The notes under the pieces are model-generated. The model searched no databases and had not been told where the DNA came from. It saw only the letters and a program-made list of their open reading frames with translations. The translations under genes and the position numbers were made by a program. A stretch of 64,000 bases of DNA from Alphaproteobacteria bacterium (lineage in GTDB: Bacteria > Pseudomonadota > Alphaproteobacteria > MPNO01 > UBA830): positions 1,088,001-1,152,000 of the forward strand of contig OZ219790.1 in NCBI GenBank assembly GCA_964291215.2, read 5' to 3'. Shown piece by piece: positions 243 to 62,502 of the stretch (positions are counted from its first letter, which is position 1; the number at the start of each line of letters is the position of its first letter).

Positions 243-863
243 TCACCTCCTCTCTTGATCAGAACGGCAGGTGTCGGTGGATTTTTTGCTGACAACAGCG
301 ACATGGGGCAAAGGGGCCGATCCCTTCCAAAAGGAAGCCGGATCAAGTTCATTCGCCGTCCGATGCGCTGGTTGGCTAAAGCGGTGGGAATGGTGTTCGA
401 TGATTATATCGTCTTCAGTGCGCTGCTCGGTCAGAGCTCGAGCAAGCGGAGATTGCGAGAGTCTCTTTTGCAGACTGTCGAAGCTCATCCCGCGGAGCTG
501 GAACAGGAGCATCAGGTCACGATCAAGCAGGGAAGCAATCTTGTAGTACACCCCAGCCACGTGTTTGCAGGGCGATGCCCGATCCGGACATGAACATGTG
601 CTGATCAACTCACCAGAATCATGCGGTAACAGGCTTTTGCCCGTTTCGACAGACACCTTGTAACGCGGTTCCTTGTAGACGCCGAAATACGGGTTGATAT
701 TCCCACGCATCACCGCTCGCACCTTGCTGCCCGCAATCTCGAATTCCAGCAACCGGTTCGGGCCGGAATATGACCGGCCGCGTCGCAAACGACCTTCGTC
801 CATGCACCCCTCCAGGACGTCCAGGAAGACCTCGCCCCACCATGTTCTGCTCTTTCTGACCAT
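243..863 (-). CDS. SWIM zinc-finger protein, partner of the SNF2 helicase; possibly internally deleted or C-terminally frameshifted
   Basis: N-terminal TWWG..RL.RGRSY motif and CSCPD-x4-CKH SWIM motif; directly downstream of the SNF2 gene. Confidence 0.8.
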   Translation of the reverse strand: MVRKSRTWWGEVFLDVLEGCMDEGRLRRGRSYSGPNRLLEFEIAGSKVRAVMRGNINPYFGVYKEPRYKVSVETGKSLLPHDSGELISTCSCPDRASPCKHVAGVYYKIASLLDRDLMLLFQLRGMSFDSLQKRLSQSPLARALTEQRTEDDIIIEHHSHRFSQPAHRTANELDPASFWKGSAPLPHVAVVSKKSTDTCRSDQERR

Positions 864-865
864 GA

Positions 866-3800
866 TCAGGTCTCCAGTATCAGTTGTCGGTTCAACGCGA
901 TCAGATCCCGGAAAGCCGCGTTGTCCATCTCGGTCAGCCAGTCTTCGTTTGAACCGACGATATTCTCTGCGAGCGCCTGTTTGGATTCGATCATTGAATC
1001 GATCCGCTCTTCGAGGGTGCCGAGGACCACCATCTTATGGGCGAATACCGTCTTTTCCTGTCCGATTCTGTAGGCCCGATCGGTAGCCTGGTTCTCGACA
1101 GCCGGATTCCACCAACGGTCAAAATGAAAGACGTGATTGGCCTGCATCAGGGTGATGCCGACCCCGCCCGCCCTGAGCGAGAGGATGAAGATGCCGGGAG
1201 ACGCCTGCGGGTCCTGAAAACTCTCGATCATTTTCTCTCGACGGCTGCGGCTCGTCCCGCCATGCAGATAATGAACCGGACAACCATGACGCTCTCTCAA
1301 GAGTGTCTCGAGCCGATGGCCGACATCGGTAAACTGGGTAAAGACAAGCAGGCTGTCAGACCCGTCAAGCGCCTCCTCGATCATTTCGTTGAGGCGAGTC
1401 AGCTTGTGCGAGCGCGAAGCCTCAAAGGCGCTTCCGTCCTGGAGAAACTGGGAGGGATGATTGCAAATCTGCTTGAGCTTCATGAGCGTCGAGAGAATCA
1501 GTCCGCGGCGCTGCATGGACTCGGCCTCTTCGATCTGCTTTTGGACATCGTCGACAACCGCCTGATAGAGTGACGCCTGCTCTCTGGTTAGATTGCAGTA
1601 CACCTTCTGTTCGACCTTGTCCGGCAGATCGCTAATGATCGACTTGTCTGTCTTCAGGCGCCGAAGGATGAAAGGCCGCACCAAACTTTGAAGCTGTCGG
1701 CTGCGCGAGGGATCGGAGTCCCGCTGGATGGGCGTTTCGTAGGCACGCTTGAACCGGGCAACCGTGCCAAGGTAGCCAGGGTTGAGAAAGTTAAACAGTG
1801 ACCACAGGTCCATCAGCCGGTTTTCAACCGGTGTTCCGGTCACAGCGATTCGACGCGGGGCGCGCAGCGCGCAGATCGCACGTGCTTGTGCCGACTTCGG
1901 ATTCTTGATGTTCTGCGCCTCGTCTACCACCACTCTGTGCCAGTCAGTTGATTTCAACAGGTCCTTGTCGGACCGGGCAAGTGCAAATGAGGTAACGATC
2001 AGATCAGCGTGGTCGATCGCCGCAGCGAACGCCTCTGGATCCCGTGCCCGGTCAGAGCCATGATGGATCACACACGCCAGATCGGGAGCAAATTTCCCGA
2101 CCTCGCGTTTCCAGTTGCTGAGCACCGATGTCGGTGCAATAAGCAGGGTTGGCGCAGGCGCTTCAGGGTGCAGTTCTTGGCGCTCGCGCAGCAACAGCGC
2201 GATCAACTGTATGGTTTTGCCGAGCCCCATGTCGTCCGCGAGGCACGGGTTGAGCCCTAAGGCCTCCTGCATCGCGAGCCACGCCAACCCTTTCTTCTGA
2301 TAGGTTCTCAGGCTTCCCTGCAGGCCATGCGGGTCATCGGCCGGATCGATTGCATCCTGGTTTTGCAGCTGGCGCAGGGTCTTGTTCAAGACTTCGTCAA
2401 ACTCGAATGTGACAGCATCCTCGTCAGCTTCCGCGATGTCTTTCACAAGCTGGTTGAATCCGATACTGTCGTCATCAGTGCCCTTGCCACGCCACAGTTC
2501 CAGCATACCCGACAACTGCTCGCTGTTGATTTCCATCCATTCGCCACGAAACCGGACCAATGGTGATTTCGCGCTAACGAGCGCCAGCCATTCCTGTTCG
2601 CTGACCGGCTCACCGTCGATGGACAGGTCGTACTGATAGTCCACAAGAGAGTCGAGGCTGAGCATGCCGTGGCCTGTCTCGGTGGCCTTCGCCGGGTGCG
2701 CGGCCGCCTTGATCCGGATCCGTGCGCGGCGTCTTCCTTCCAGCGTCCACCAGCTTGGAAGCACGATCTTGAATCCGGCAGATTCGAGTACCGCCGCATC
2801 GTCTTTCAGGAACTCATACGCGGTATCGAGATTGATGCGCAGCCCTGTCGGCCTTGCAGATTCCATTCCCTGCCACAGGAGCGGACACATGCGTGCCGCA
2901 TGGCCGAGCCCGATCAGCAGATTGCGTTCAAACTGGGCGCCGAACTCCTTCAGCCATTGCTCCCTGTCGGCATCGGACAGTTTCCACCATTCCTCCAGAT
3001 CGAGTCTGAGTGACGGGTCGCGTCCGGACGACACGAAAAAATGCAAGCTCCAGTAGCCGTCATCACCTTCCTTGACCTCGTCAAGACGCACGCCAAGAAC
3101 AAAGCCCGGTTCATGAGTCCGAGCAACTATTTTGTCGTACCATGCTCGCCACTGCTTCAAATCCTCCGCTGACGGATTGTCTGGAGTCGTACCGTCGGCA
3201 GCGGCCTTTGATCCTCCAAGAGCACATACGAGCCAGGTGTCCTTGATTTTGTTCAGAAAACCCCGGGTAAAAGAGGTGTTGGCGACCAAGGATTCAAGCT
3301 GCTGTTCACTAAAATGCCTGAGCATTCCCAGTCGATCGAGCAGTATCGGTTTCGTGACCTGAAACACCTTTGTGCCCGTCGCCATAGCCTGGATCGCACA
3401 GACGTCTGGCATCGCCTGCGCAAACTCATGCAGCCCGCTTTCATAATGTCGTGCAACCGGAGCCCATCCGGTCAAAATCTCAACCCGGTCTTTCTTTGCG
3501 TCAACCTGGCGGGACTTCATGACCGGCAGAAACTGGTGTTGGCGCACGATATATCTGAGTTGTCGAGCATATCGGGTCCAAAACTGCAGACTGTACCCGG
3601 GTTGGGTTTGCTCAACTCCGTAACCAAACAACACTTCAAGTTCGCGCAGAAATGCAAGGGGTCTTGCAATCTCGATCGCACTGATCTCCCACGTTTCCCA
3701 AGTGCAGCTGTCCGGCAGGTACTCACCAGTCAATTGTGCCATCTCAAGACTGGGCAATGGTCGTCCGTTTTCGGTCGGGAGCGCTGCCCGAAACGTCGCG

Positions 3801-4018
3801 TTTCGCGCCTCAGCCAGAGTTATCGCTGAGTTCGACAAACCAAGTCTTGAAACCAGGAATTCTCGAATCCGGTCAGAGTGCAAGAGACTTCCCGGATGCT
3901 GGTACAACCTCCCCGTTTTCCCATCGGGACGGGATGTCTCAACCCAGAACAAAAATCGTCCGGGATTATCGAACGCAGGATCGGAAGGAACCGACCACAC
4001 TCCATGACAGATATCCAT
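866..4018 (-). CDS. SNF2-family (Swi2/Snf2) ATP-dependent helicase, 1050 aa
   Basis: LADDMGLGKT, VVDEAQNIKN, TGTPVENR, DRWWNPAVENQATDRAYRIGQ motifs. Confidence 0.95.
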   Translation of the reverse strand: MDICHGVWSVPSDPAFDNPGRFLFWVETSRPDGKTGRLYQHPGSLLHSDRIREFLVSRLGLSNSAITLAEARNATFRAALPTENGRPLPSLEMAQLTGEYLPDSCTWETWEISAIEIARPLAFLRELEVLFGYGVEQTQPGYSLQFWTRYARQLRYIVRQHQFLPVMKSRQVDAKKDRVEILTGWAPVARHYESGLHEFAQAMPDVCAIQAMATGTKVFQVTKPILLDRLGMLRHFSEQQLESLVANTSFTRGFLNKIKDTWLVCALGGSKAAADGTTPDNPSAEDLKQWRAWYDKIVARTHEPGFVLGVRLDEVKEGDDGYWSLHFFVSSGRDPSLRLDLEEWWKLSDADREQWLKEFGAQFERNLLIGLGHAARMCPLLWQGMESARPTGLRINLDTAYEFLKDDAAVLESAGFKIVLPSWWTLEGRRRARIRIKAAAHPAKATETGHGMLSLDSLVDYQYDLSIDGEPVSEQEWLALVSAKSPLVRFRGEWMEINSEQLSGMLELWRGKGTDDDSIGFNQLVKDIAEADEDAVTFEFDEVLNKTLRQLQNQDAIDPADDPHGLQGSLRTYQKKGLAWLAMQEALGLNPCLADDMGLGKTIQLIALLLRERQELHPEAPAPTLLIAPTSVLSNWKREVGKFAPDLACVIHHGSDRARDPEAFAAAIDHADLIVTSFALARSDKDLLKSTDWHRVVVDEAQNIKNPKSAQARAICALRAPRRIAVTGTPVENRLMDLWSLFNFLNPGYLGTVARFKRAYETPIQRDSDPSRSRQLQSLVRPFILRRLKTDKSIISDLPDKVEQKVYCNLTREQASLYQAVVDDVQKQIEEAESMQRRGLILSTLMKLKQICNHPSQFLQDGSAFEASRSHKLTRLNEMIEEALDGSDSLLVFTQFTDVGHRLETLLRERHGCPVHYLHGGTSRSRREKMIESFQDPQASPGIFILSLRAGGVGITLMQANHVFHFDRWWNPAVENQATDRAYRIGQEKTVFAHKMVVLGTLEERIDSMIESKQALAENIVGSNEDWLTEMDNAAFRDLIALNRQLILET

Positions 4019-18551: not shown

Positions 18552-20516
18552 ATGGGCGACAATCCGAAGTCCACCTTCGCCCGGTGCGTCCGCATCGCGA
18601 AGCCCCGAACGACGAAATACGAAATCCGCGACGATGTCGTGAGCGGACTCGCACTGACGGTCCAGCCTACCGGAGTCCGAACCTTCTTCCTCGCCCGCAT
18701 GGTGTGCGGGCGCAGGCGCTACGCCACCATCGGCAGCGCCGACACGATGACGGTTCCCGAGGCGCGGCGCGAGGCCCGCAGGCTCATCGCCAGCTATATC
18801 GAACCGGCGAAGACGGACAACGGACCCCGCACACCGGGACATCCGATGGACGCCTTCGCCGCCGAGTTCCTCGACCGGCAGCCCCCCCCCCCCCGGCGGT
18901 CCCAGCGGTACTGTAACTTGATGTCTGGAAATTTGTCTGAGGTTTGCGCTTTGAGGCGTTTCACTGGGGGGGCTAGCCCCCCAGTGAAACGCGGCGCCAT
19001 CGTACTATCCCATGGAGTTGTAAAACCTTCATGGAGGAAGCGAATGGACCTGCGACACACCACGACGATTGAGGCCGTTTTGGAACATCTGATCGCAAAC
19101 GGAGCAACGGATCTGGGGCGGGTCTTTGGCCAGCTCTTCGAGCTTGCGATGCAAATCGAGCGCGAGCAGTACTTGAAAGCGGGCCACCGGACACCGGAGC
19201 GACAGGGCTATGCCAACGGCTACAAGCGGATCGACACCCCCACTGTTACCGTTCAGGTGCCAAACGGTCACGGGGACGACCCGTCCCCAGTCGCTTGAAC
19301 GCGGCCAGCGATCTTCTCGCGCCGTGGCCGAGATGTACATCAAGGGTGTTTCCACGCGGCAGGATGTAATGCGCGAGTTCGGGAGCCTGTCCTCTTCTCA
19401 GGGGGCCACCAGGTTGCTCGATGAAGAACTCGCCGCGCAACCGGCCCCTGATGAAATACCTGATCCTGGATGCGCGCTACGAAAAAGCCCGCCATGACGG
19501 CGTTGTGCGCGATGTTGCAGTGCTCTCGGCCATCGGAATAGGGGCTGCAGGCACGTTCTGGGGCTCTCTGTGGCGCTCTCCGAGGCCGAGGTCCATTGGA
19601 GAGCCTTCCTGGAAAGCTTGCTAGCCCGTGGCCTGCATGGTACGACCTTCATCGTCTCGGATGCCGGGCTGAAAGCGGCACGGTGCTGGGCGCGGCGACA
19701 TGGCAGCGCTGCCAGTTCCACTTGGCACAAAACGCCGTGCACCGAACAACGACATCAGGAAACGTATTGGAAAACAGCTCAGAGCCATGCGTCCTCACTC
19801 CAAACCGCCGAGGCTGAACTGGCCGCCCTCGTGGCCAGCTATCGCAACAAGCATCCAGGCTTCCTGGCTGGAAAACAATGCGGGGCTCGCTGTCTTCACC
19901 TTGCCCGATGCTCACCACAAACGTATGCGAACCTCGAACGGCATCGAGCGACCGATCCAGCAAGAACTCAAGCGGCGCACCTCCAAAGTCAGGGTCTTTC
20001 CGAACCTTGCCTCGTTGGAGCACCTCTCAACCGCAGTCCTCATCGACGAAAAATGGGAAACCGAAACCAAGATCAAATGGGAACAGCTCGATCAGCTTCA
20101 CGACAATTTCCAGACATCAGGTTGCGTAATCCTGGCGCTCACCGATGCCAAGACCGGGCCGAGGACGGTTCCACTCAGCAGCCGGGCCAAGACCATTCTC
20201 GACCGGCAACCGCGCACGAGCAGCGCGTCCGTGTTTCCCTCGCCGCACGACCCCGCCCGCCCGCGCGGTCCAGACCTCCCGTTCTGGTATCGCGTGCGCC
20301 GCGAAGCAGGGATGGAAGACATCCGTCTTCATGACCTCCGTCATATCATGGCCAGCCATGCCATCATGAACGGGCGTGCCCGTCCCGGTGGTCTCCCGGT
20401 TGCTCGGCCATTCCAATGTGCGCATGACGCTGCGCTACGCCCATCTCGCCGACCGCGACATCGAAGCCGCCGCGGAACGCGTCGGGCAGGCCATGAGCGC
20501 CGTGCTGGAGGCGTGA
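18552..20516 (+). pseudogene. Phage-type tyrosine integrase (arm-binding N-domain) split by IS256, middle missing
   Basis: 5' part MGDNPK..EARREARR to ~18880; 3' part KTGPRTVPL..RLHDLRH..LLGHSNVRMTLRYAH at 20133-20516 with one frameshift. Confidence 0.85.
18907..20132 (+). mobile_element. IS256-family element, copy 1 (decayed)
   Basis: IRs ..TAACTTGATGTCTGGAAATT / AATTTCCAGACATCAGGTTGCG; transposase fragments EMYIKGVSTR, RTSNGIER, RVFPN. Confidence 0.9.
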
Positions 20517-20557
20517 TCTACGACCCGGCCCGATGCAGCTGCTATCGGCGTGTCCGG

Positions 20558-20770
20558 TCAGAACTGCCGCACGAAGGAGAGTTCGGCGCGGTTGCGGTCG
20601 TAGTCGAGGGCCTGGGCGTTGCTCGCGGATGAGCGAGAGGCGGGGGCTGAAGCCGGCCAAGGTGAAGGCGCGGTTGTGCGCGGAGAGCGAGAGGGTGCGC
20701 GTCTCGTCCCGGCGCGGCCTGCGGTCGATGGTGTTGTGGGCGAAGCCCTGTCCCTGGTATGCGGCGTGCT
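20558..20770 (-). pseudogene. C-terminal fragment of a Slam/DUF560-like outer-membrane beta-barrel
   Basis: Ends SNAQALDYDRNRAELSFVRQF*, resembling the Slam terminal beta strands; frameshifted, no N-terminus. Confidence 0.55.
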
Positions 20771-21316
20771 GCGGTGAGCAGCAGCAATCCCCGCTGGCGG
20801 CGGCGGATGTCCCGGCCCCCACTCGGCCAGCCACTCGACGAAATGGTCTACCGGGGTGTCTCCGCCCCCGGCTTCCAGCGCATGTTCCTCGACGGCTTGG
20901 CGCAGCAGGTCGTGCCAGGGACCGGCGGGCCGCCGCGCGTCCACGCGGGCGCGCAGGGCCATGCCGTCGACGATCCGGGGGTCCCGCCCGTGCAGCCATC
21001 GAACGAACGCCCGAGCCTCCCGCAGGCGCCAGAAACTCGAGATCTCCTCGTTCGCCATCTGAAGCGAAATATCATGCGCCTCGCAAAACGCCCGTACGGG
21101 AACCAGATACTCCCACTCGCGCGCGATCACCGCACAGCGCGACCAATCCCACGCGGGCACAAGCCCGAAGAGACGCAGAAACTCCGCCATGACGGCGCGC
21201 GCCTGACAGACCGGACCGCCGCCCGTCGGCAGGATTTGCACCCGCCCGCACGAAACCAGGTCCAGCGCCGCCCACTCACCGAAGCTCGCCGATCAGGGGT
21301 TACCGCCGCGGCTTGA
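20771..21316 (-). pseudogene. Internal fragment of a large RecQ/UvrD-type helicase
   Basis: WDWSRCAVIAREW..FVEWLAEWG..RRRQRGLLLLTA, breaking just before the expected HRAKGLEF motif. Confidence 0.55.
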
Positions 21317-21365
21317 TCAGGCAGGTGCGACGGGGATAGAATTAGCGCGAGAAGGAAGGGAAACG

Positions 21366-53416: not shown

Positions 53417-54628
53417 TCACGCCCGCCTCCCGTCGACCTCGAATTCGATCGCGGCGAGCCGGTCACCCGCGATCGCGCGCTCGAATGCAGCCAGCCGCTT
53501 GTAGATGGACATCAGCTCGACGATGGTGGTCCAGGACTTGACGAGATACTGGAAGGAGTCCTCCACACGCCCGAACGCGCGAATGATCTGCTGCATCACA
53601 CCGAGCGTGAAACCGGCCGCGACGATCGAAGGACCGAGCACGATGTAGGGAAGCACCACTCCCACCTGGAGGTAACTGTAACGGACAATATCGAAATACA
53701 GATAGTTGAGGAACAGCCTGAAGTAGTTCCGGCGTACGTTCGAAAAAAGCTGCCCGAGCGACGGTGGCCTTGCGTGTTCGGTGTCATCCTCGCCCAAAAC
53801 CAGTTCCTTGCGGTAGGCCGCCTCGACGCGCTGGTTGCGGAATTCGAGCCCGGGCAGCCGTATGCCGGCCAACGCCAGGATCGTCGTCCCGAACACGGAC
53901 CAGAGTATCGCGACGAAGACCAGGGGTTGGGGCACATGGCCCACGAGGGGCAGTTCGGTGATATGTCCCGACAGGTGCCAAAGAATCGGCAGGAAGGCGA
54001 GCAGCGTCATTACCGCATCGATGAATCTCGAGCCGAGGGATTCCACGATGGCAGCGAATTTCATCGTGTCTTCCTGGATCCGTTGCGACGCTCCCTCGAC
54101 ATGGCGGATGCGGGACCAGACCGAAACATAGTAGTCGTTCATCGCGGTTCGCCAGCGGAACACGTAGTGTTTCGTCAGAAAGGCCGCCAGAACCGCGGTC
54201 AGGATGTAGACCATTGCGATCGTTACGAAGGTCAGAAGCTGCCCGAAATACTCGTCCACGGTCACCGAGTTGGGCTTTCCGAGGGCTTTCTGAATAATGT
54301 CATAGAACCTGCCGAACCACTCATTGATCATCACGTCCAGCTGGACCTGAAACCAGATGGCGAAGACGATGAGAGTGGAGCCTCCCACCGACCAGCGCGC
54401 CCAGGGATGGCGCGCCAGCATCAGCCAAGCGAACGCGAACACGGCGTAGCAGGCGACGACGAATTCATAGAGCCAGACCTTGGCCGGCGCCCAGCCCGTC
54501 AGTTCGGCGACTCCGGACGGTTCAGCCCAGTCCGACGCGACGGAATGCCAGAAAACGATGCAGGCGATGGCCCATGCTGTTGCGGAGAGAACGAAAATGC
54601 GCGGTCGGGGAAAGAATGACTGAAACAT
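53417..54628 (-). CDS. sbmA: Peptide transporter SbmA/BacA
   Basis: MF.SFFP.PR.F start, HYVFRWRTAMN, EGASQRIQEDTM, EFRNQRVEAAYRKELV.GED. Confidence 0.93.
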   Translation of the reverse strand: MFQSFFPRPRIFVLSATAWAIACIVFWHSVASDWAEPSGVAELTGWAPAKVWLYEFVVACYAVFAFAWLMLARHPWARWSVGGSTLIVFAIWFQVQLDVMINEWFGRFYDIIQKALGKPNSVTVDEYFGQLLTFVTIAMVYILTAVLAAFLTKHYVFRWRTAMNDYYVSVWSRIRHVEGASQRIQEDTMKFAAIVESLGSRFIDAVMTLLAFLPILWHLSGHITELPLVGHVPQPLVFVAILWSVFGTTILALAGIRLPGLEFRNQRVEAAYRKELVLGEDDTEHARPPSLGQLFSNVRRNYFRLFLNYLYFDIVRYSYLQVGVVLPYIVLGPSIVAAGFTLGVMQQIIRAFGRVEDSFQYLVKSWTTIVELMSIYKRLAAFERAIAGDRLAAIEFEVDGRRA

Positions 54629-54911
54629 GGGGGGGCCTCTTCGAACAGGAAAACCGGAAGGGAAAAGCGGCGCTGCGCCGGAGGCAAAGGACCGCAGCGT
54701 TTTCGACGGCCGCTGACAACCTGCCCGGCAGATCGCGACCTACATCAGATGCAGATCCAAGTCGAGCGCGCCGAGCCCGGCATGGGCCGGCCGACAAGAC
54801 AACAGGACGGTCCCGCCAGTCCTTCCGGCGCCCCCTTCGGGGCCCGGCATTGCGCACTGCCACCAGGCTCGTCATCATGCCCGTCCATCGAGAACCTTGC
54901 CGGTCAGGACA

Positions 54912-55793
54912 ATGAGGATATCGTGGCAGTCGCCCATCACGGGCTACATCATCGCTCTTGTCTCCGCCCTGGCCTTTGCCGGCCAGAACGCGTTTGCCGG
55001 ACTCGCCATCGAAAACGGCACGGCACCGCTGACGCTCGTCACGGTGCGAACTGCCTTTACCCTGTGCGCACTCGCCGTCCTGCTGAAGATCACGGGCGGT
55101 GAGCTGACCCTGCCTCGCCGGGACCGGTATGCGGCAATGGGCCTCGGCATCTTGAACGGGGTAATGGCCTTCTTCCTGATATCCGCCTTCGACCACATCG
55201 CGGTCGGCCTCGCGATTCTGATCTTCTACCTCTATCCCGTACTCACCGGCATCCTTTCCTGGACAACCGGAATGGATCGGCTCGACCGCAGCCTAGTGGT
55301 CGGCCTGATCGGCGGATTCGCCGGCCTCTCCCTTGCTCTCGAATTCTCCGGCGACGCCGACAGCACGCTGGGCATGGCAATGGCAGCGACCGCGGCGGCG
55401 ATGATGGCGGCGACGATCATACTGAGCACCCGCGTGCTCCGGAGCAACAACTCCCGGACCGTCACGCTATACATGCACCTCGCGGCAGCCGGCATGTTCG
55501 CTGTCCTGTACGCCGCGACGGGCGACCTGTCCGTGCCGGTGGCGTCGGAGGGATGGATCGGTGCGATCGGCGTCCTGATCCTCTATACCGTAGCGATTGC
55601 CACGTTCTTCGCCGGCATCGCAAGAATCGGAGGCGTGCGCGCGTCCCTCGTCATGAATCTCGAGCCGATTGCCAGTATCGGTCTCGGGTTCCTGCTCCTC
55701 GGTCAGGCTCTCACGCCGCGCCAGCTCATCGGCGCCGCCATCGTTCTCGCAGCCGTGACCGCGGTCAAATGGCTGAAGGGAAAGCCGCGTTGA
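54912..55793 (+). CDS. EamA/DMT family transporter
   Basis: About 10 TM helices; G..RAS..MNLEP motif. Confidence 0.88.
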   Translation: MRISWQSPITGYIIALVSALAFAGQNAFAGLAIENGTAPLTLVTVRTAFTLCALAVLLKITGGELTLPRRDRYAAMGLGILNGVMAFFLISAFDHIAVGLAILIFYLYPVLTGILSWTTGMDRLDRSLVVGLIGGFAGLSLALEFSGDADSTLGMAMAATAAAMMAATIILSTRVLRSNNSRTVTLYMHLAAAGMFAVLYAATGDLSVPVASEGWIGAIGVLILYTVAIATFFAGIARIGGVRASLVMNLEPIASIGLGFLLLGQALTPRQLIGAAIVLAAVTAVKWLKGKPR

Positions 55794-55929
55794 ACGGACT
55801 CGTCTCCGGCGGCCCGCCAGCCCCGTCCCGCCAACGCGACATGACCGGAGGCACCGCTGCGAGACCGGAGTTGCGCAAGGCCACGACAACCCGCAGACTC
55901 CCTTTCGCAACAACAGACTGGAAGGCCCG

Positions 55930-56352
55930 ATGACCAAGACGATTGAACATGTCCACTGGCCCGACGCGCCGGACATGTGGATGCCTTACGCCCCCGCCAT
56001 AAAGGTCACCGGCGGCACCACCGTGCATCTCGCGGGCGTCACCGCGGCGCCGGTCTACCACCACCACCCGCATCGCGCCGAAGAGTTCGATTCCATGCCG
56101 ACCGACATGCGCGGTCAGACCCGTGCGGCGCTCGCCAACCTCGAACGCGGGCTGGACGCCGTCGGAGCAGATTTTGCCAACATCGTCACCGCAACCCGAT
56201 TCGTGACGGACCTTGCCGACCAGGACGCAATGAACGAGGTCTGGGCAGAGTATTTCGGACAGGCCAAGCCGGCGACCACGACGGTGCAGGTCGTGCAGCT
56301 CGCGACCGACCCGCGCTGCCTGATCGAGATCAACGCCGTCGCCGTCATCTGA
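55930..56352 (+). CDS. RidA/YjgF family protein
   Basis: PY.PAI, QTRAAL.NL, MNEVWAEYF..PA.T, IEI.AVA. Confidence 0.9.
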   Translation: MTKTIEHVHWPDAPDMWMPYAPAIKVTGGTTVHLAGVTAAPVYHHHPHRAEEFDSMPTDMRGQTRAALANLERGLDAVGADFANIVTATRFVTDLADQDAMNEVWAEYFGQAKPATTTVQVVQLATDPRCLIEINAVAVI

Positions 56353-56379
56353 CGGTGGCAACAGGAGGAGACGAGCCAC

Positions 56380-57447
56380 ATGTCGCAGCCACCGGCGGAC
56401 GCGGACTTCGACCGGGAAATCCTCGACTACTGGATCCCTCGCCTCGTGGCCGACGGCATTGATGCCAACGATGCCCGAACAGCCCGAACGCAAATCAAGA
56501 GCTGGGCTGACTGGTCCGGCGTCTGGTCCGGCATTGCCGAAACCTACCAGTCCCTGGCTGCCGCCCGCCTGGCAGCGGATGCCCAACTGACTGCCGGCGA
56601 GGCGCTGGTCCGGTCCAGCCTCTGCTACCATGTTGCCCAACTGGTTCCGACCCGGACGCCCGAACTCAAGGCCGGCCTCCAGCAGCGCAAGGTCGAGCGA
56701 TTTCGGGAAGCTGCACCGCTGATTGATCCTCCGGCGAAGCGTCTCGAATTCCGGCACGGGAACAGTCTCTTCCCGGGATACTTACGCCTGCCGGCTGGTG
56801 TCGGGCCCCATGCCTGCGCGATTCTCGTGCCGGGGCTCGATTCGACCAAGGAGGATTTCATCACCGTCTCCGACATGTGCGTGCGTCGCGGGCTCGCCAC
56901 TTTCGCATTTGACGGGCCCGGTCAGGGCGAGGCGCGGTCGCACAGCGTGCTCGCGCCTGGCTACGAAGGCTGTATCGGTGATGTCTTCGAGCTAATGGCC
57001 GCTCGCGACGAGATCGACGGAAGCCGGATCGGCCTGCTCGGACGCAGCCTCGGAGGCCACTACATTCTGCGCGCCGCCGCGGCAGATGACCGCATCGCTG
57101 CCTGCACCGTCTTCGGTGGAGCCTACGACCTGTCGGACTGGGACAACATGCCGCAGACCATTCTCGACGGCTTCCGCCACGCCACCGGTTCAGCAACCGC
57201 CGACGAGGCCCGGAACCGGATGGAAGCGAGCTCGCTCGACGACTGCATCGATCGGGTCGGTTGTCCGACGCTGATCGTCCATGGCCGGCGCGACGCGATA
57301 TTTCACTGGACGCAGGCCGAACGGATCGCCGGGGCGCTCAAGTGCAACCCGACGCTCCTGATGGACGAGGACGGCGTGCATTGCTGCCACAATCACGCCT
57401 TCGAATACCGCACCGCGATGGCCGACTGGCTGGCCCAGATCCTGTGA
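56380..57447 (+). CDS. Alpha/beta hydrolase similar to 2,6-dihydroxypseudooxynicotine hydrolase
   Basis: PGLDSTKE, FDGPGQGE, GRSLGG nucleophile, G.HCC.N. Confidence 0.82.
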   Translation: MSQPPADADFDREILDYWIPRLVADGIDANDARTARTQIKSWADWSGVWSGIAETYQSLAAARLAADAQLTAGEALVRSSLCYHVAQLVPTRTPELKAGLQQRKVERFREAAPLIDPPAKRLEFRHGNSLFPGYLRLPAGVGPHACAILVPGLDSTKEDFITVSDMCVRRGLATFAFDGPGQGEARSHSVLAPGYEGCIGDVFELMAARDEIDGSRIGLLGRSLGGHYILRAAAADDRIAACTVFGGAYDLSDWDNMPQTILDGFRHATGSATADEARNRMEASSLDDCIDRVGCPTLIVHGRRDAIFHWTQAERIAGALKCNPTLLMDEDGVHCCHNHAFEYRTAMADWLAQIL

Positions 57448-57499
57448 CGGAGGCGCACGAAGGCGCTGCCTGTTCCGTTCGCCGCGAAAGCGGAACCGG

Positions 57500-57934
57500 T
57501 CAGTCGGCAACCAGTACGACGACCGGTATCTCGCGTATCGCCGACGCCTTCCTGCGATAGGCGTCATAAGGCGGATAGATCCCGGCCATCATTGGCCAGA
57601 GCCGTACTCGTTCCTCGGCACTCGCCGCGTGGGCCCGGGCCGTGAAGGTGTCGGCGCCGACTTGGACCGTGACCCGGGGGTCTGCCTCGATATTGAAAAA
57701 CCAGCCCGGATGGTTCGGAAGGCCTCCCTGGGAAGCGACCACGACATGGTCGTCGCCATCGCGCCCGTATATCAGCGGAGTCGTCCGCCGCTCGCCCGAT
57801 TTCCGTCCGGTTGTGGTTAGCAGGAGGCACGGGAAGTGCCCCTTGCCGTCGTGGCCGCGCCAGATATGACCGTCGGCGCCGCCGGTTTCGAGATAGCGGC
57901 GGACATGATCCCTAGTCCAGTCGAATTTTGCCAT
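57500..57934 (-). CDS. Deazaflavin (F420)-dependent nitroreductase family oxidoreductase (FDOR-A/Ddn-like)
   Basis: LLLTTTGRKSG..R.TPL, VVASQGG.P.HPGW..N, Y..Y....REIPVV. Confidence 0.88.
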   Translation of the reverse strand: MAKFDWTRDHVRRYLETGGADGHIWRGHDGKGHFPCLLLTTTGRKSGERRTTPLIYGRDGDDHVVVASQGGLPNHPGWFFNIEADPRVTVQVGADTFTARAHAASAEERVRLWPMMAGIYPPYDAYRRKASAIREIPVVVLVAD

Positions 57935-58061
57935 TGCCTGAAACTCGTGCGGTTGTGTGCCGGACATAACAGCAGACGCGGCGATTCTGCCACCTTCTGC
58001 CGGCCCGAACAATTCCGCCCGGGCCAGTTAATAGTGTGCCGGCGGCGTCGTGAAGAGCCGA

Positions 58062-58895
58062 CTACGCCGCCATCTTCCATTCCGCCAAACCGCAGCCGAT
58101 GAGGATCTCGGGAACCGGCCTGTAATCGATCAGGTCGAAACCGCGGCTGCCGCATGCGGCATGAACGATCAGCCAGTTTCGGAGCTCGGCGCTGCCATTG
58201 CCGGTCGTCTTGAGTCTGCGCTCGAGTTCGCTCGCGAACTCCTCGTCGGAAGCGTCGCGGAACATTCCGATGCAGGCGTCGTCGAACGGCTCATCGATCC
58301 AGCCCGTGGTGACCTCGCCGATGGAGTGGCTCAGCCCGCCGGTTCCGAGCATTGCAACGCGGAGTTTCCCCGGGAAACTCTCGATAGCCTGCCTGACCAT
58401 CTGACCCCAGCGGATACAGCGGCCGGGTTTCGGGAAGGGCTCTTCCATAAGATTGATGAACAGGGGCACGACCGCGACTTCGGGGCCGATGCCCGTTTGC
58501 CAGAGCGGCACGCAGATTCCATGGTCGAGCTTGAGCCGCTGCGCATAGGCGGGATCAAAGCCGGAGTCCAGCGCAACATCCAGGATATGGCGTCCGAGCG
58601 CTTCGTGGCCCGGCCACATACGGTGGGGAAACAGCGGCTTCATGAAGGGCTCCGGCGGGCCATCATGCTCATCGCCAATGCCGATGCAGAATGCCGGCAT
58701 GTTGTCGAGAAAGAAGTTGACCCAGTGATCGTTGGACTGCACGACCAGGACATCCGGTTCCAGCGCCTTCACGCGACGGCCGAGCTCGGTATAGGAGTCG
58801 ACGATCCAGTCACGCGTTCCCGGATCGAGAGTGGTCCAGTGACGGGCGATGTTGGGGCCGTGGCCGGCCGCGAAACCGCCGACGAATTCAGCCAT
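58062..58895 (-). CDS. LigB-type (class III) extradiol ring-cleavage dioxygenase, large subunit
   Basis: GHGP, NDHWVNFF, LDHG, TGGLSH, ELRNW. Confidence 0.9.
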   Translation of the reverse strand: MAEFVGGFAAGHGPNIARHWTTLDPGTRDWIVDSYTELGRRVKALEPDVLVVQSNDHWVNFFLDNMPAFCIGIGDEHDGPPEPFMKPLFPHRMWPGHEALGRHILDVALDSGFDPAYAQRLKLDHGICVPLWQTGIGPEVAVVPLFINLMEEPFPKPGRCIRWGQMVRQAIESFPGKLRVAMLGTGGLSHSIGEVTTGWIDEPFDDACIGMFRDASDEEFASELERRLKTTGNGSAELRNWLIVHAACGSRGFDLIDYRPVPEILIGCGLAEWKMAA

Positions 58896-59163
58896 TGGCG
58901 ACCTCCTGCTGTCGTTTTCCGATGTCGCTGAGAATCCTGATCGAGCCCGCGTCGTCATGGCCGCTGATCAGCAGAAAGAACCGCAGCAGGTAGGGATTGG
59001 CAAGCGGCTGAATCACGTCATAGTCGTCTTCGAGGAGCGCCTTGCGAACTTCGGGCGAAAGCGGATAGCTGTCGACGACATCCTCGCGGCTGTTCGTCCA
59101 CCGGTCCTTGCCGTCGTCGCCCTGGAGATCAAACATCAACTTGTTGAGCCAGTAGTCCGCCAT
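58888..59163 (-). CDS. LigA-like small subunit of the extradiol dioxygenase
   Basis: Y.LNKL.FDL..YPLSPE...ALL..D..ANPYLL; overlaps the LigB start. Confidence 0.75.
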   Translation of the reverse strand: MADYWLNKLMFDLQGDDGKDRWTNSREDVVDSYPLSPEVRKALLEDDYDVIQPLANPYLLRFFLLISGHDDAGSIRILSDIGKRQQEVANG

Positions 59164-59595
59164 TACCGCCTCCGCAATCGTAGCGAGAAAGAGGAGCGAT
59201 TGTAACGCCCAAGGGCAGCATGTCCACGAAAAAACCGGTCCAATGGACGCCATCGGCAAACCAGTTCCGTAGGCAGCCTCGGGCCCGCTGCCAAGACCAT
59301 TTTTGCTTGTGCCGGCCCGGGTCCTCGGCATGCAGTCAATCGGGATGATCGATGATGGCCGGAAGCCATTTCGATCATGATTTGACGAGAGCAGGAGAAA
59401 TTTCGAAGGCGCCAGACAGCATTTTCTCGCTTCAATGGTCAGTCCCTGATCAATTCCGGATACCTCTGCAATGCAGGCGTGATCGGGAGCAAAATCCACT
59501 GTTTAGGCGAACTTGACCCGGAGCAATGGAGCAACCTGTTGGAAGGCGCACTTGCGTAAGGTTACTGGCGACTGCGGCTATCCGGTTATGATACC

Positions 59596-62168
59596 GGCCT
59601 TATCGTTTCATGTTTCCCCCGTTCCATAGTGAAGTGCAACCCATGATGGGCTGTGGCCATGTGTTTTTAGACGCATGATGTTGCGGAGCGGTAGCGGCGA
59701 GAGTTTCTGTGCAAGATAAAGGGAGCTTGTTCATGTCCAAAGGCTACCGTTACCTACGAAGAGCGATGCCAGATTGAGGCAGAAAAGCGGTCTTTCACAA
59801 GGTGCGATTGCTCGGCAGCTGGGCCGATCAACAATTTTCCGGGAGATCAAGCGCAACACCGGGGGACGGGGTTACCGTCACAAGCAGGCGCAAAGGATGG
59901 CAGAAACGCAGGGCAGCCTCGTCTGTTTCCTGGCGGTTGACGCCTCGGGTTGAAGCTCAGAAAAAGCTGCGGGAGGGCCCCGAGCAGCGGCCGTTTTCGA
60001 CTGGAAGGCCGTGGGTCGGCAACGGATCCATGATCGCGCATTCATGAAGATCGGAGAGCTGGGGACGTCTTGTGGAAGAAGCTTCAGCGGCGCGGCAAGA
60101 AGCCGAACTGGAAGGGCGGATGCCATTCCGGCCGGGTGGACATTTCCGAGCGCCCTGCGGAGGCAAAGGAACGGATCGGCGACTGGGGGCCATCATCGGC
60201 AAAGCTCACAGTGGAGCTGTCGTGTCGCTCGTGCCACGAAATACACCTTGCTGGGTGGACAGAAAGACACGGTTGGTTCGGTCATGATCCGCCTGCTCGG
60301 CTCTGGTGCGCTATTGGTCCACACAATCACGTCAGACAACGGAGTTCGCAGACCACAGGCGTGTCGCTGAAGCACTTGATGCAGATTTCTTCTTCGCCTG
60401 TATCTACTCACCCCTAGTTGGGTTCTGATTGGCCATAGTGCTCGTTGATGATGTCTGCGGCTTTTCCGTCGAGGGCGATCTGGGTGGCGACGAGTGGGTT
60501 GTAGCCGAGTGCGGCCATGGAGGTGAGGTAGCTTGAGCCCCGGCACCATGCTTTTGCGTGGAGCGGAAGCATCCGGACACCTTGAGCTTGACCTTTGCCA
60601 TCCTGATTTTCTGTTCTCCGGCATTGTTGGTGAAGCTGACGTTGGGGTCGTCTGTGAAGCGCAGGTTTTCGTGTTTCACGAGACGTTCGTGCAGGTTGTG
60701 CGCGTCGGACTTGCGTCCACGTTTTCCTTTCGTCGGCGGCGGGATGTCGGGCAGTTCCCTGGCGCCCTGATGGTGCGGTAGCGCTTGCGCACGGCCCGGC
60801 GTCGTTCAGGGTTTTGGATGCGCTCTTGTTGACCTTGTGGCAGACCTCGCGGAGCAGGCTCTTCATCAGTCGCGCGGTAGCCTCGACGACAAAGGTCAGT
60901 TCGCGCAGCAGGTGGCTGCCGCACAGCTGGTGGCTACACTGGCCCATGTACGAGGTCCAGCAGTCAGGACGCCCTTGTAGCACGGGATGATGCCGATCTC
61001 TTGCCTCCCGGCCGCGCTTGCGGTGCGGGAACTTGCACGTCCCGTCAGTGACGACATGGAGCCACTTACTGTTGATCCGAAATCATCGACATCGGGCGTT
61101 GCAGGAGGTGCGCCACGGCGGCCTCCTCCCATGACGCATCGTGAAAGCATAGCCGAGGCAGGTTGCCTCGGAGAGCTTGATGCCGGAGACCGCCTGCACG
61201 AACGCGACGGCACGGCGCAGGGACAGCATCTGGGCGACCAGTAGGTTGATAACGAGGGCTTGGATGCCGATGCCGTACTGCACGGGGCCCGGCATGTTGT
61301 CGGGGAACCGGCCCCGGGCCTTGCACTTCGGGCATTCCTTGATCTCGGCGCGGCGCTCGACGACCTCGAACACGATGTCATAGAGGACGCGGCGCTCCCG
61401 ATCGACAGGGCCGTCGATGTCAGCGCCGCAGGCGTCGCAGGCCGCGACCGTCTCCTCGACGATGGTCTTGCGCAGGTTGTCGCCCATCTGCCGGTTCGGC
61501 TTCGGGCCCTTGCCGTTGCTTCCGGCACGCTCTCGTCCTTGTCCGTCTGTGACGGCGGCAGACCGGAGTTCCGGCTCGTGCGTGGTCTTCTCCAGAAGGA
61601 CGACGATGATGATGTCGAGCAGGATGACGAGGACGCGGATGACGGCCTCTTCCGCCACTTTGCCGGCCGCACGCAGCGCCGCGATCCGGGTTTTGGCCGC
61701 TTCGAACTCCTCGCGCGCCGCGTTGACCGTCGCCATCACCCGGCCTTGCGCTTCATCAGCGCGCCGCTTCCGAGATGCGTTTTCACATACAGATCATGCG
61801 GGGGCTGGAGCCCCGGAAGTAGCTGGCACAGCCCGCTCGTCGCCTTCGATCCAAAGTAGCCCACTGGCGGTCCCCGTCGTTCTCGATGACCACCACTAAA
61901 CGAATCGGCATGCAGTGTCAAATCTCCACGAAAACCCGTTCGTTGCTCTACCCCGACATCAAGCCGGAACCAGGGGGTGAGCAGTTACCTTCGCCTTTCC
62001 ATTCCTGGGAGCGCGGCTTGAATGAGCACACCAACGGCCTGGGGCGGGAGTACTTCCCGAAGGGCACGGACTTTCGCGCGACATGCAACGAAGATGTTCA
62101 GAAGGTGCGGCTCAACACTCGGAAAGTCCCGGGATCGCCGACGGAGGTAATCTTGAAGTGAAACCGCC
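59596..62168 (+). mobile_element. IS30-family element, decayed, interrupted by IS66 (left end approximate)
   Basis: MSKGY..TYEERCQIE, REIKRN, ITSDNG, SWERGLNEHTNGL.REYFPKGTDF; imperfect IRs. Confidence 0.82.
60400..61988 (-). mobile_element. IS66 copy 4 (least deleted)
   Basis: Both ends present; 8-bp TSD CTTCGCCT. Confidence 0.93.
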
Positions 62169-62310
62169 CTGACCATCTGCGTTCCAAAGCCGCAACGTGC
62201 AGCAGGGTCCATGCCGCGCGACGGCGGAATAGTGGCTTGAAGCCGACAAAGGCGTTGCATAAGCTTGATGTTGAAGGAACTGAAGCTGTTTCCAGGCGGA
62301 ATCGAGAGGG

Positions 62311-62337
62311 GCAGGGGGAAAAAAGAACTCCCCCTGC
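62311..62337 (-). terminator. GC-rich hairpin downstream of the tRNA, possible terminator
   Basis: GCAGGGGGA-N9-TCCCCCTGC; no clear U-tract. Confidence 0.35.
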
Positions 62338-62426: not shown

Positions 62427-62502
62427 TGGTGACCCCAACGGGAGTCGAACCCGTGTCTTCACCTTGAAAGGGTGATGTCCTAGGCCTCTAGACGATGGGG
62501 TC
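62427..62502 (-). tRNA. tRNA-Glu (UUC)
   Basis: GACCCCATCGTCTAGAGGCCTAGGACATCACCCTTTCAAGGTGAAGACACGGGTTCGACTCCCGTTGGGGTCACCA, 76 nt with encoded CCA. Confidence 0.96.

Follow-up and report, generated by a model that had tools for sequence, protein, structure and literature searches.

How do the insertion sequence (IS) copies of a bacterium come to lack many small pieces of nearly the same length? The question is raised by a 64,000-nucleotide stretch of an alphaproteobacterial genome (contig OZ219790.1, positions 1,088,001 to 1,152,000; hereafter the window), in which several IS families and a group II intron carry frequent gaps of 5-7 nucleotides (nt). An earlier note on the window described these gaps as copy-specific deletions of mobile DNA, and proposed a process that repeatedly cuts high-copy DNA and rejoins it with a near-fixed loss, functionally like fungal repeat-induced point mutation (RIP). 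Analysis of the whole genome instead found almost all of the deletions to be shared among copies and exchanged between them in short tracts. This genome (G000) is 6.15 Mb in two contigs (C1 and C2), with 64% G+C and 99.3% completeness. It belongs to a deep, probably uncultured alphaproteobacterium, because the 16S gene shows no more than 88.7% identity to full-length named records among the matches listed, all of which are Alphaproteobacteria. Repeats were located by k-mer mapping and greedy family discovery: 27.6% of 20-mers are repeated, and 683 repeat regions occupy 2.10 Mb in total. The full-length set comprised 345 copies from five families, namely four IS families and the group II intron, with 78 copies in the IS256 family. 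G000 was compared with four other genomes of its genus (G001-G004) and with G036, from a different family of the same order.

The narrow size class seen by eye in the window agrees with the genome-wide histogram. When the repeats of the window were aligned with the whole genome, 11,637 of 16,095 pairwise gaps, which are not independent of each other, measured 5-7 nt. The gaps numbered 1,598 at 1 nt, 629 at 2 nt, 593 at 3 nt, 230 at 4 nt, 2,869 at 5 nt, 5,441 at 6 nt, 3,327 at 7 nt and 185 at 8 nt, with a trough at 4 and a fall at 8. In another 63 repeat windows, where each event was scored once, the 5-7 nt class held 530 of the 872 deletions. All six gaps quoted earlier for IS256 copies 1 and 2 are present in the alignment of the two copies, as are five of the six quoted for IS66 in that of three IS66 copies; the sixth is a compound 9/3-nt gap. 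Refilling the 5-8-nt pieces alone was found to give stop-free frames of 440 codons in IS256, 533 in IS66 and 425 in the intron reverse transcriptase, and to restore the IS630 and IS30 frames in part. Since open frames are recovered on refilling the longer allele, the gaps are deletions from intact elements. Each of the 345 full-length copies carries at least one deletion of 5-7 nt, with a mean of 8-17 per kb. Inverted repeats remain intact beside 8-bp target-site duplications (TSDs); the IS66 duplications, reported earlier as intact, were 8 bp long at 12 of 14 scored isolated copies.

Could the gaps be an artefact of assembly or polishing? Repeats in a metagenome-type assembly are error-prone, and the sequencing data at hand, Logan contigs from three runs, come from one study, with one run possibly being the source sample. 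Both alleles were nevertheless observed in independently built contigs of all three runs, at the level of contigs rather than phased raw long reads. Among 12 of the 93 indel rows, 7 fell in the 5-7-nt class, with both alleles in the thousands in depth, and the flanking single-copy contigs listed contained up to 21 substitutions and zero gaps. The single-copy genes are clean, and the end motif of the deletions, described below, recurs in single-copy DNA and in G002. In addition, G036 contains more than 30 intact IS256 copies with one 5-nt event: its 88 pairwise 5-nt gaps go back, in essence, to a single site. G036 is a weak control, because its IS256 elements are young. An artefact is thus highly improbable.

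The description of the deletions as copy-specific does not hold. Of 6,495 occurrences in the 345 copies, only 47 are private, and 162 of 164 deletions in the seven full-length copies of the window are also found in other copies. An identical deletion may be present in up to 119 of 123 copies, and a single deletion length was observed at 105 of the 121 sites with at least 20 deleted copies. The combinations of deletions, by comparison, are close to unique, with distinct haplotypes in 78/78, 56/56, 44/47, 123/123 and 41/41 copies by family. In the four IS families, linkage between deletions falls to an r2 of 0.01-0.04 past 50 nt, and the four-gamete test is violated by 67-97% of the deletion pairs separated by more than 50 nt. 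This sharing is incompatible with descent by a tree. An account by descent only, in which deleted copies were mobilized in trans like miniature inverted-repeat transposable elements and sharing reflects ancestry, would fit the intact inverted repeats and 8-bp TSDs as well as the similar haplotypes in subgroups of intron subfamily B. It is contradicted by the four-gamete violations and near-unique haplotypes unless the assembly scrambled the copies, and is very unlikely. Among pairs of single-nucleotide polymorphisms (SNPs) lying 2-5 nt apart, 46 of 100 were coupled; the figure was 18 of 182 for a distance of 16-25 nt and 48 of 2,737 for one past 200 nt. Because this coupling decays within about 25 nt, the copies undergo templated exchange in tracts of about 10-25 nt. 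Some deletions are linked to adjacent SNPs (e.g., 12/13 versus 0/32). No dependence of the deletions on contig or strand was found.

Which deletions spread? Among clean private deletions, defined as having no neighbor within 6 nt, 28 of 46 were 1 nt long and 8 were 5-7 nt long, whereas 83 of 88 isolated deletions present in more than half of the copies belonged to the 5-7 nt class. When all deletions were considered, 35% of 493 deletions of 5-7 nt had passed half of the copies, as against 3% of 35 deletions of 3-4 nt and 6% of 54 deletions of at least 15 nt. Relative to the rebuilt ancestors, no insertion of at least 3 nt, tandem duplications included, was found in more than one copy. The leftover 5-7-nt insertions are mostly not duplications, and four of them complete the IS256 frame; they look like the last intact remnants of near-fixed deletions. 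Deletions thus spread more than insertions, as read from one assembly. The difference from ordinary mutation is large, with about 0.016 deletions per substitution in single-copy DNA and 0.3-1.4 in the five families. According to neutral theory, unbiased conversion cannot raise this ratio, and therefore either a bias or a local increase in rate is required.

The latter option, unbiased conversion combined with a raised local mutation rate, or with host selection for dead transposases, deserves attention given that conversion is clearly frequent, that SNPs are shuffled as well and that the single-copy background shows an excess of its own. Private deletions in the repeats are mostly 1 nt long, however, which does not suit a raised rate. 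Equally inactivating frameshifts of 1-2 nt mostly stay private, 8-17 deletions per kb go far beyond a first knockout, and non-coding intron domains and a host gene are affected too. This explanation is therefore regarded as improbable.

The load of deletions follows duplication. The density of 5-7-nt gaps was 0.73 per kb for repeats with 2 copies, 2.6 for 3-4, 3.9 for 5-9, 6.8 for 10-19 and 7.4 for 20 or more, while mismatch density stayed at 42-57 per kb across all classes. In the 63 windows, the load correlated with copy number (rho 0.54) rather than with divergence (rho -0.12). A two-copy IS256 pair with 49 mismatches in 1,465 bp contains no gap, and both of its transposases are open; a young IS66 group of about 10 copies at 99.5% identity or more has zero 5-7-nt gaps. 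Restriction to mobile DNA, as first proposed, does not hold, since a multicopy host gene with fibronectin-III (fn3) repeats, an integrase family of about 7 copies and single-copy DNA are also affected. The load depends on duplication and not on the type of element, be it IS, intron, integrase or fn3 host gene. Position within the repeat matters as well. The terminal 100-150 bp of the ISs are largely spared of deletions, yet SNPs are common there. Intron ends are not spared; the intron of the window sits inside an IS66 copy. In interrupted copies, 236 deletions were observed within 200 bp of the break against 290 expected (ratio 0.79-0.83), and 379 against 388 expected (0.98) beyond that distance.

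The group II introns allow the passage of deletions between subfamilies to be followed. In the 11 copies of subfamily B scored against the single near-intact member of that subfamily, deletions of subfamily A were found at 190 of 286 site-copies, compared with 51 of 363 for SNPs of subfamily A. Intron deletions with a diagnostic SNP about 2-14 nt away mostly failed to cross, and some deletions are enriched in one subfamily, in either direction. Across the families, SNPs are over-represented on intact copies within about 10-15 nt of a deletion site, in a roughly symmetric window. All 12 subfamily B introns lie on contig C2, where the copy at C2:3402931-3404766 is nearly intact, and group II introns also occur in head-to-tail tandem runs (G000:C2:1320039-1324962 and C2:151336-157105).

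A faint version of the process is genome-wide and lineage-specific. The 33 broken genes scored as single-copy span 44 kb; stops numbered 47 in them, frameshifts 4 and two-residue gaps 8, damage far below the IS load. Over 239 kb of single-copy DNA aligned between G000 and G001 at about 93% identity, non-coding losses of 5-8 nt amounted to 28 sites in G000 and 5 in G001 (p 3.5e-4), whereas losses of 1-4 nt were equal (75 vs 74). In coding DNA, 6 nt were missing at 15 sites in G000 and 1 in G001, so that the 5-8-nt events total 43 and 6, respectively. All 43 G000 sites are unique sequence; polarity, assigned without an outgroup, rests on 42 of the 43 not being tandem duplications, with one being a tandem duplication. 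Five pairs among the 43 lie 25-40 bp apart, more than uniform placement gives (C1:751501/751541, C2:3273335/3273363, C2:2621013/2621049, C1:674769/674803 and C2:3349330/3349355).

The trait was also detected in some of the relatives. In G002 proteins, losses of two residues were counted 38 times and of one residue 14 times, against 4 and 12 on the G000 side (p 0.0009). The corresponding two- and one-residue losses were 13 and 9 in G004 (second sample, 6 and 2), 1 and 4 in G003 (second sample, 0 and 2), 0 and 3 in G036, 4 and 2 in G008, and 0 and 2 in G012. In G002 and G004, two-residue losses thus exceed one-residue losses in intact single-copy genes, the reverse of what is usual. In the repeats of G002, sampled over 800 kb (13% of the genome), 794 of 1,901 gaps measured 5-6 nt (6 nt, 581; 5 nt, 213). 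The repeat sample of G004 was just 2.8 kb, and the samples of G001 and G003 had no usable repeats. The trait is present in G000 and G002 and probably in G004, and was not seen in the samples of G001 and G003.

What do the deletion junctions indicate about the origin? As first reported, many but not all of them carry microhomology: at least 2 nt at 41% of junctions, compared with 20% by chance, and none at 33%. With both strands pooled, and against a null matched for microhomology, the ends share the inward reading S|D-Y-C (log-likelihood 232 for 444 sites; shuffled sets, 23-35), giving a weak, twofold-symmetric full preference of S|D-Y-C...G-R-H|S. The motif was found at each end at a frequency of 0.63-0.65 versus 0.37 in the null, and at both ends at 0.405, as independence predicts. 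When the motif matrix was trained on families other than those scored, 27 of 973 top-scoring sites were deleted compared with 4 of 2,431 bottom-scoring sites, a 17-fold difference. The score also lay weakly above the null for 30 deletions in single-copy DNA (z 2.1) and for 20 in the repeats of G002 (z 2.6). Such a twofold-symmetric preference with a spacing of 5-7 nt would be the expected trace of a dimeric enzyme making staggered cuts.

Several other sources of the pattern were considered and rejected. Hairpin loops do not account for it, the two deletion ends not being complementary to each other. Hotspots every 25 nt or so were not supported, as spacing is unphased and overlaps are mostly chance. 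The motifs GANTC, CCWGG and GATC are not enriched at deletions, and deletions are not centered on mismatches, as an idea based on NucS would have it. The TSDs of resident ISs do not provide a 5-7-nt ruler, the families scored having TSDs of 8 or 2-3 bp, and one small family 5 bp. Microhomology-mediated end joining was set aside because 33% of junctions have no microhomology and sizes are narrow.

Overall, we consider it rather probable that the deletions arose by seeding and spread, that is, by rare deletions of the staggered-cut type followed by deletion-biased gene conversion through the copies. In the seeding step, a rare, genome-wide staggered double-strand cut, presumably by a dimeric nuclease, would lose its 5-7-nt overhang. 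Some slippage would contribute as well, given that microhomology of at least 2 nt occurs at twice the chance level. In the spreading step, two copies would pair over at least 100-200 bp and exchange a patch of 10-25 nt. A heteroduplex of the RecA type would form and its looped-out intact strand be lost, favoring the shorter allele. Loops of 1-4 nt may fail to spread because MutS sees them. MutS is reported to bind loops of up to four nucleotides (PMC8235422), and recognition of such loops and of mismatches would account for both the step at 5 nt and the block imposed by close SNPs. As each copy can receive deletions seeded in any other copy, load would scale with copy number, such that families that are both large and old would die out, whereas elements with two copies or a recent expansion would survive.

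Several observations weigh against this reading. How often a site is deleted barely follows its motif score (rho 0.12, p 0.08), and intact copies are not richer in motif-weakening SNPs (36 vs 29, p 0.66); together, these results indicate that the motif marks origin more than spread. A MutS threshold alone predicts a peak at 5 rather than 6-7 nt, and leaves the upper limit at 7-8 nt and the direction unaccounted for. The size filter is weakened by a 1-2-nt IS66 deletion that reaches 78 of 123 copies, and by the fact that ancestor rebuilding could not score 1-2-nt deletions above 70% frequency. The direction of change reflects one assembly, not gains and losses among strains. The two-copy repeats may be under selection. 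In G002, the 5-6-nt deletions are mostly at low frequency and 3-nt gaps are common. Three intron deletions crossed between subfamilies despite a diagnostic SNP 4-6 nt away, and the shared ancestry of subfamily B copies means that the 190/286 counts overstate independent events. Moreover, a second length was found at 16 of the 121 sites, with five variants at one IS256 site, indicating that some recurrent cutting occurs; the deletion overlap test gave p 0.008 in IS256 and was not significant in the other four families. Finally, none of the protein families tested separates signature-bearing from signature-free genomes, within the scope of those families.

Recurrent cutting is central to the competing idea of a dedicated RIP-like system, in which a nuclease senses ectopic pairing and recuts each copy at preferred sites, the sequence setting the junction, with no transfer of template. 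Dependence on copy number and on the edges of homology, the crossing of intron subfamilies by deletions with few SNPs, the symmetric two-ended motif and the five-variant IS256 site are all consistent with it. Such a system would, however, have to yield a single length at 105 of the 121 sites despite a stagger of anywhere from 5 to 7, and to use just 27 of the 973 best motif sites with a frequency that hardly tracks the score. It would also have to account for deletions that travel with nearby SNPs (the 12/13 versus 0/32 case), for subfamily enrichment in either direction and for an untouched young family of about 10 copies. It is thus judged unlikely. What stands of the process proposed in the earlier note is the copy-number-dependent, near-fixed loss in high-copy elements with its RIP-like outcome. 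Independent cut-and-rejoin in each copy is unsupported, in view of the one length at most sites, the third of junctions without microhomology and the disappearance of linkage by about 25 nt.

The effectors suggested earlier did not emerge from searches of G000, in which Ku, ATP-dependent ligase (LigD), Piwi and spacers matching the ISs were not found. Loss of mutS or mutL, also suggested, does not apply: mutS, mutL, uvrD, recJ and xseA are open frames, the MutS mismatch-binding motif is present, and 1-4-nt indels equal those of G001. Neither nucS nor matches to S1/P1 nuclease, RecT, topoisomerase IB or DUF559 were found in G000. The search for PF02171 (Piwi) gave 0/1 in G000, and that for PF13032, which had no positive control, gave 0/5; short Argonautes may still be present. 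MutS, MutL, UvrD, RecJ, ExoVII and Smr occur in all five genomes of the genus and do not discriminate between them. Natural transformation was rejected on the basis of ComEC, found in 21 of 41 genomes searched and in 0/5 of G000-G004. Loci of restriction-modification type (L096-L099) are present in two diverged copies, and comprise MmeI-like, Mrr-helicase-methylase, DUF499, and SNF2-PLD with methylase.

Guide-directed cleavage by CRISPR systems of type I-G, II-C or III-B, or by Argonaute, with the deletions as escape events, was also weighed. In its favor, G000 has Cas9, a type I-G module, a full set of Cmr genes and two arrays, and Cmr cuts RNA at 6-nt steps. One locus, G000:C1:574174-600000 (L022, L090), combines a 97-repeat array by a Cas4-Cas1 fusion with the type I-G module and complete Cmr (III-B), all as open frames; the other, G000:C2:2063981-2069579 (L023, L092), contains Cas9 (1,046 aa) and Cas1 together with an array of 17 repeats, and an IS66 copy lies just downstream. 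Apart from short chance matches, the 112 spacers correspond neither to the five rebuilt elements nor to the genome. No single-orientation, protospacer-adjacent-motif-like flank was found at the deletions, nor such a motif at a fixed offset, and the motif that is present is symmetric and lies at the junction. Furthermore, no Piwi match was obtained, the 5- and 7-nt classes combined equal the 6-nt class in frequency, and no guide-like fragment library was found, the 19 short isolated matches lying mostly at element ends. Guide-directed cleavage is therefore scarcely credible.

The features of the window are listed in Table 1. Assignments to IS256, IS66, IS630, IS30 and the group II intron were borne out by Pfam or Rfam (IS630 by DDE_3 and HTH_32; IS30 by HTH_38 only, under the cut-off), whereas the elements earlier labeled ISAs1 and IS5 gave no Pfam match.

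Table 1. Repeats of the window and their 5-7-nt deletions (positions within the window).
Feature	Position	Strand	Observation
IS256-family copy 1	18907..20131	+	16 deletions of 5-7 nt, all common to other copies
IS66-family copy broken by group II intron	22650..25645	+	22650-23911 part: 12.5 gaps (5-7 nt)/kb vs 175 homologs
Group II intron, subfamily A	23911..25412	-	40 deletions of 5-7 nt, all shared, non-coding RNA domains included
Repeat fragment (earlier label ISAs1, unconfirmed)	26587..27450	.	4.9 gaps (5-7 nt)/kb
Multicopy host gene, fibronectin-III-repeat protein, ~7-10 copies	29197..33756	+	54/66 gaps in the 5-7 class, mainly in-frame 6 nt
IS256 fragment (39085-39459, 40690-40755) broken by IS630 copy	39085..40755	-	
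IS630-family copy	39462..40685	+	14 deletions of 5-7 nt, 13 shared
ISAzo13-family remnant, ~5-9 copies	40760..41800	-	3.8 gaps (5-7 nt)/kb
Repeat element (earlier label IS5, no Pfam match), split by IS256 copy 2	44787..46825	.	Pieces 44787-45108, 46356-46825
IS256-family copy 2	45109..46335	+	16 deletions of 5-7 nt, all shared
Repeat element (earlier label ISAs1, no Pfam match), split by IS66 copy	46826..49661	.	Pieces 46826-47778, 49315-49661
IS66-family copy	47779..49314	-	24 deletions of 5-7 nt, all shared
IS66-family copy	51206..52718	-	33 deletions of 5-7 nt, all shared
IS30-family copy split by IS66 copy	59616..62323	+	Pieces 59616-60399, 61989-62323
IS66-family copy	60400..61988	-	21 deletions of 5-7 nt, 20 shared

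A G-run/C-run hairpin located 5' of the IS256 start codon (18958-18982 and 45167-45190) differs in run length between copies, and is the sole common slippage-type change in the IS256 family. Other parts of the window include two neighboring open reading frames (ORFs) rich in RTX calcium-binding repeats (33835-37623; matches under all curated cut-offs), which have 3-4 paralogous loci at about 98% identity with zero 5-7-nt gaps between them. A single-copy ORF of 271 aa (37717-38532) has a weak C-terminal GIY-YIG-like endonuclease match (E 5e-4), a SWIM zinc-finger gene adjoins an SNF2-family helicase gene (243-4018), and a tRNA gene lies on the minus strand just past the IS30 copy (62430-62502).

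How does this process compare with known systems? Fungal RIP inactivates repeats in a homology- and copy-number-dependent manner, host duplicates included, by making new C-to-T transitions independently in each copy and leaving single-copy DNA untouched. The outcome in G000 and its dependence on duplication resemble RIP, but the lesions are shared small deletions and a single-copy background exists. Deletion-biased nonallelic gene conversion in flies and primates, with a bias of about 3.4-fold and no narrow size class reported in the text available (PMC3280953), is the closest described process. There, as here, mutation seeds deletions that pass from paralog to paralog more quickly than insertions do, and the paralogs become shorter in concert; unlike here, the exchange is between pairs, covers all sizes and is stronger for long indels in primates. 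The case in G000 is bacterial, confined to 5-7 nt and acts in families of 40-200 copies, with SNPs within about 10-15 nt blocking spread and a symmetric end motif. Dead IS copies in Wolbachia likewise persist and exchange sequence by gene conversion, but decay by substitutions and deletions for which the accessible text gives no size class or direction (PMC3205602).

Deletion spectra and loop recognition offer partial parallels. Deletions in bacterial pseudogenes are reported to follow a power law with bumps at 3, 6, 9 and 12 (PMC6054270); about 40% of their junctions have microhomology and 6 nt stands above its neighbors, both as in G000, where, by contrast, the 3-4 nt sizes form a trough and deletions of 5 nt and of 7 nt each outnumber those of 3 nt by a factor of 6-7. 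The blind spot of MutS for longer loops matches the step from 4 to 5 nt, whereas the text available describes neither a limit at 7-8 nt nor a direction or end motif (PMC8235422). The trans-acting IS-excision enhancer also damages IS loci through end-joining, but it excises whole ISs using at least 4 bp of homology (PMC9943667); in G000 the elements stay in place and a third of the junctions lack homology. In the literature covered, from which subscription journals were largely absent, nothing was found that describes deletions of a 5-7-nt class sweeping through the repeats of a bacterium.

What does the finding mean for genomes loaded with ISs? It bears on how such bacteria stop runaway transposition without RIP or small-RNA silencing, since the spread of short alleles would act as a built-in transposon brake. 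More tentatively, the process may constitute an anti-repeat system, a lineage-specific counterpart of RIP. A dimeric nuclease would stagger cuts, or remove 5-7-nt loops, in paired homologous DNA, so that dead copies would write deletions into arriving relatives and serve as a heritable immune memory against transposons and retroelements. One genome offers thousands of scorable events for the size window, end motif, tract length and copy-number dose response. As close relatives differ in the trait, the responsible gene should be findable by comparison, and the loop-loss step is testable in vitro. The process would also provide a route for fixing two-residue deletions in ordinary genes and is a possible driver of bacterial deletional bias. 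If the reading is true, a nuclease or repair step taking out exactly 5-7 nt where homologous DNA is paired would represent new repair biochemistry.

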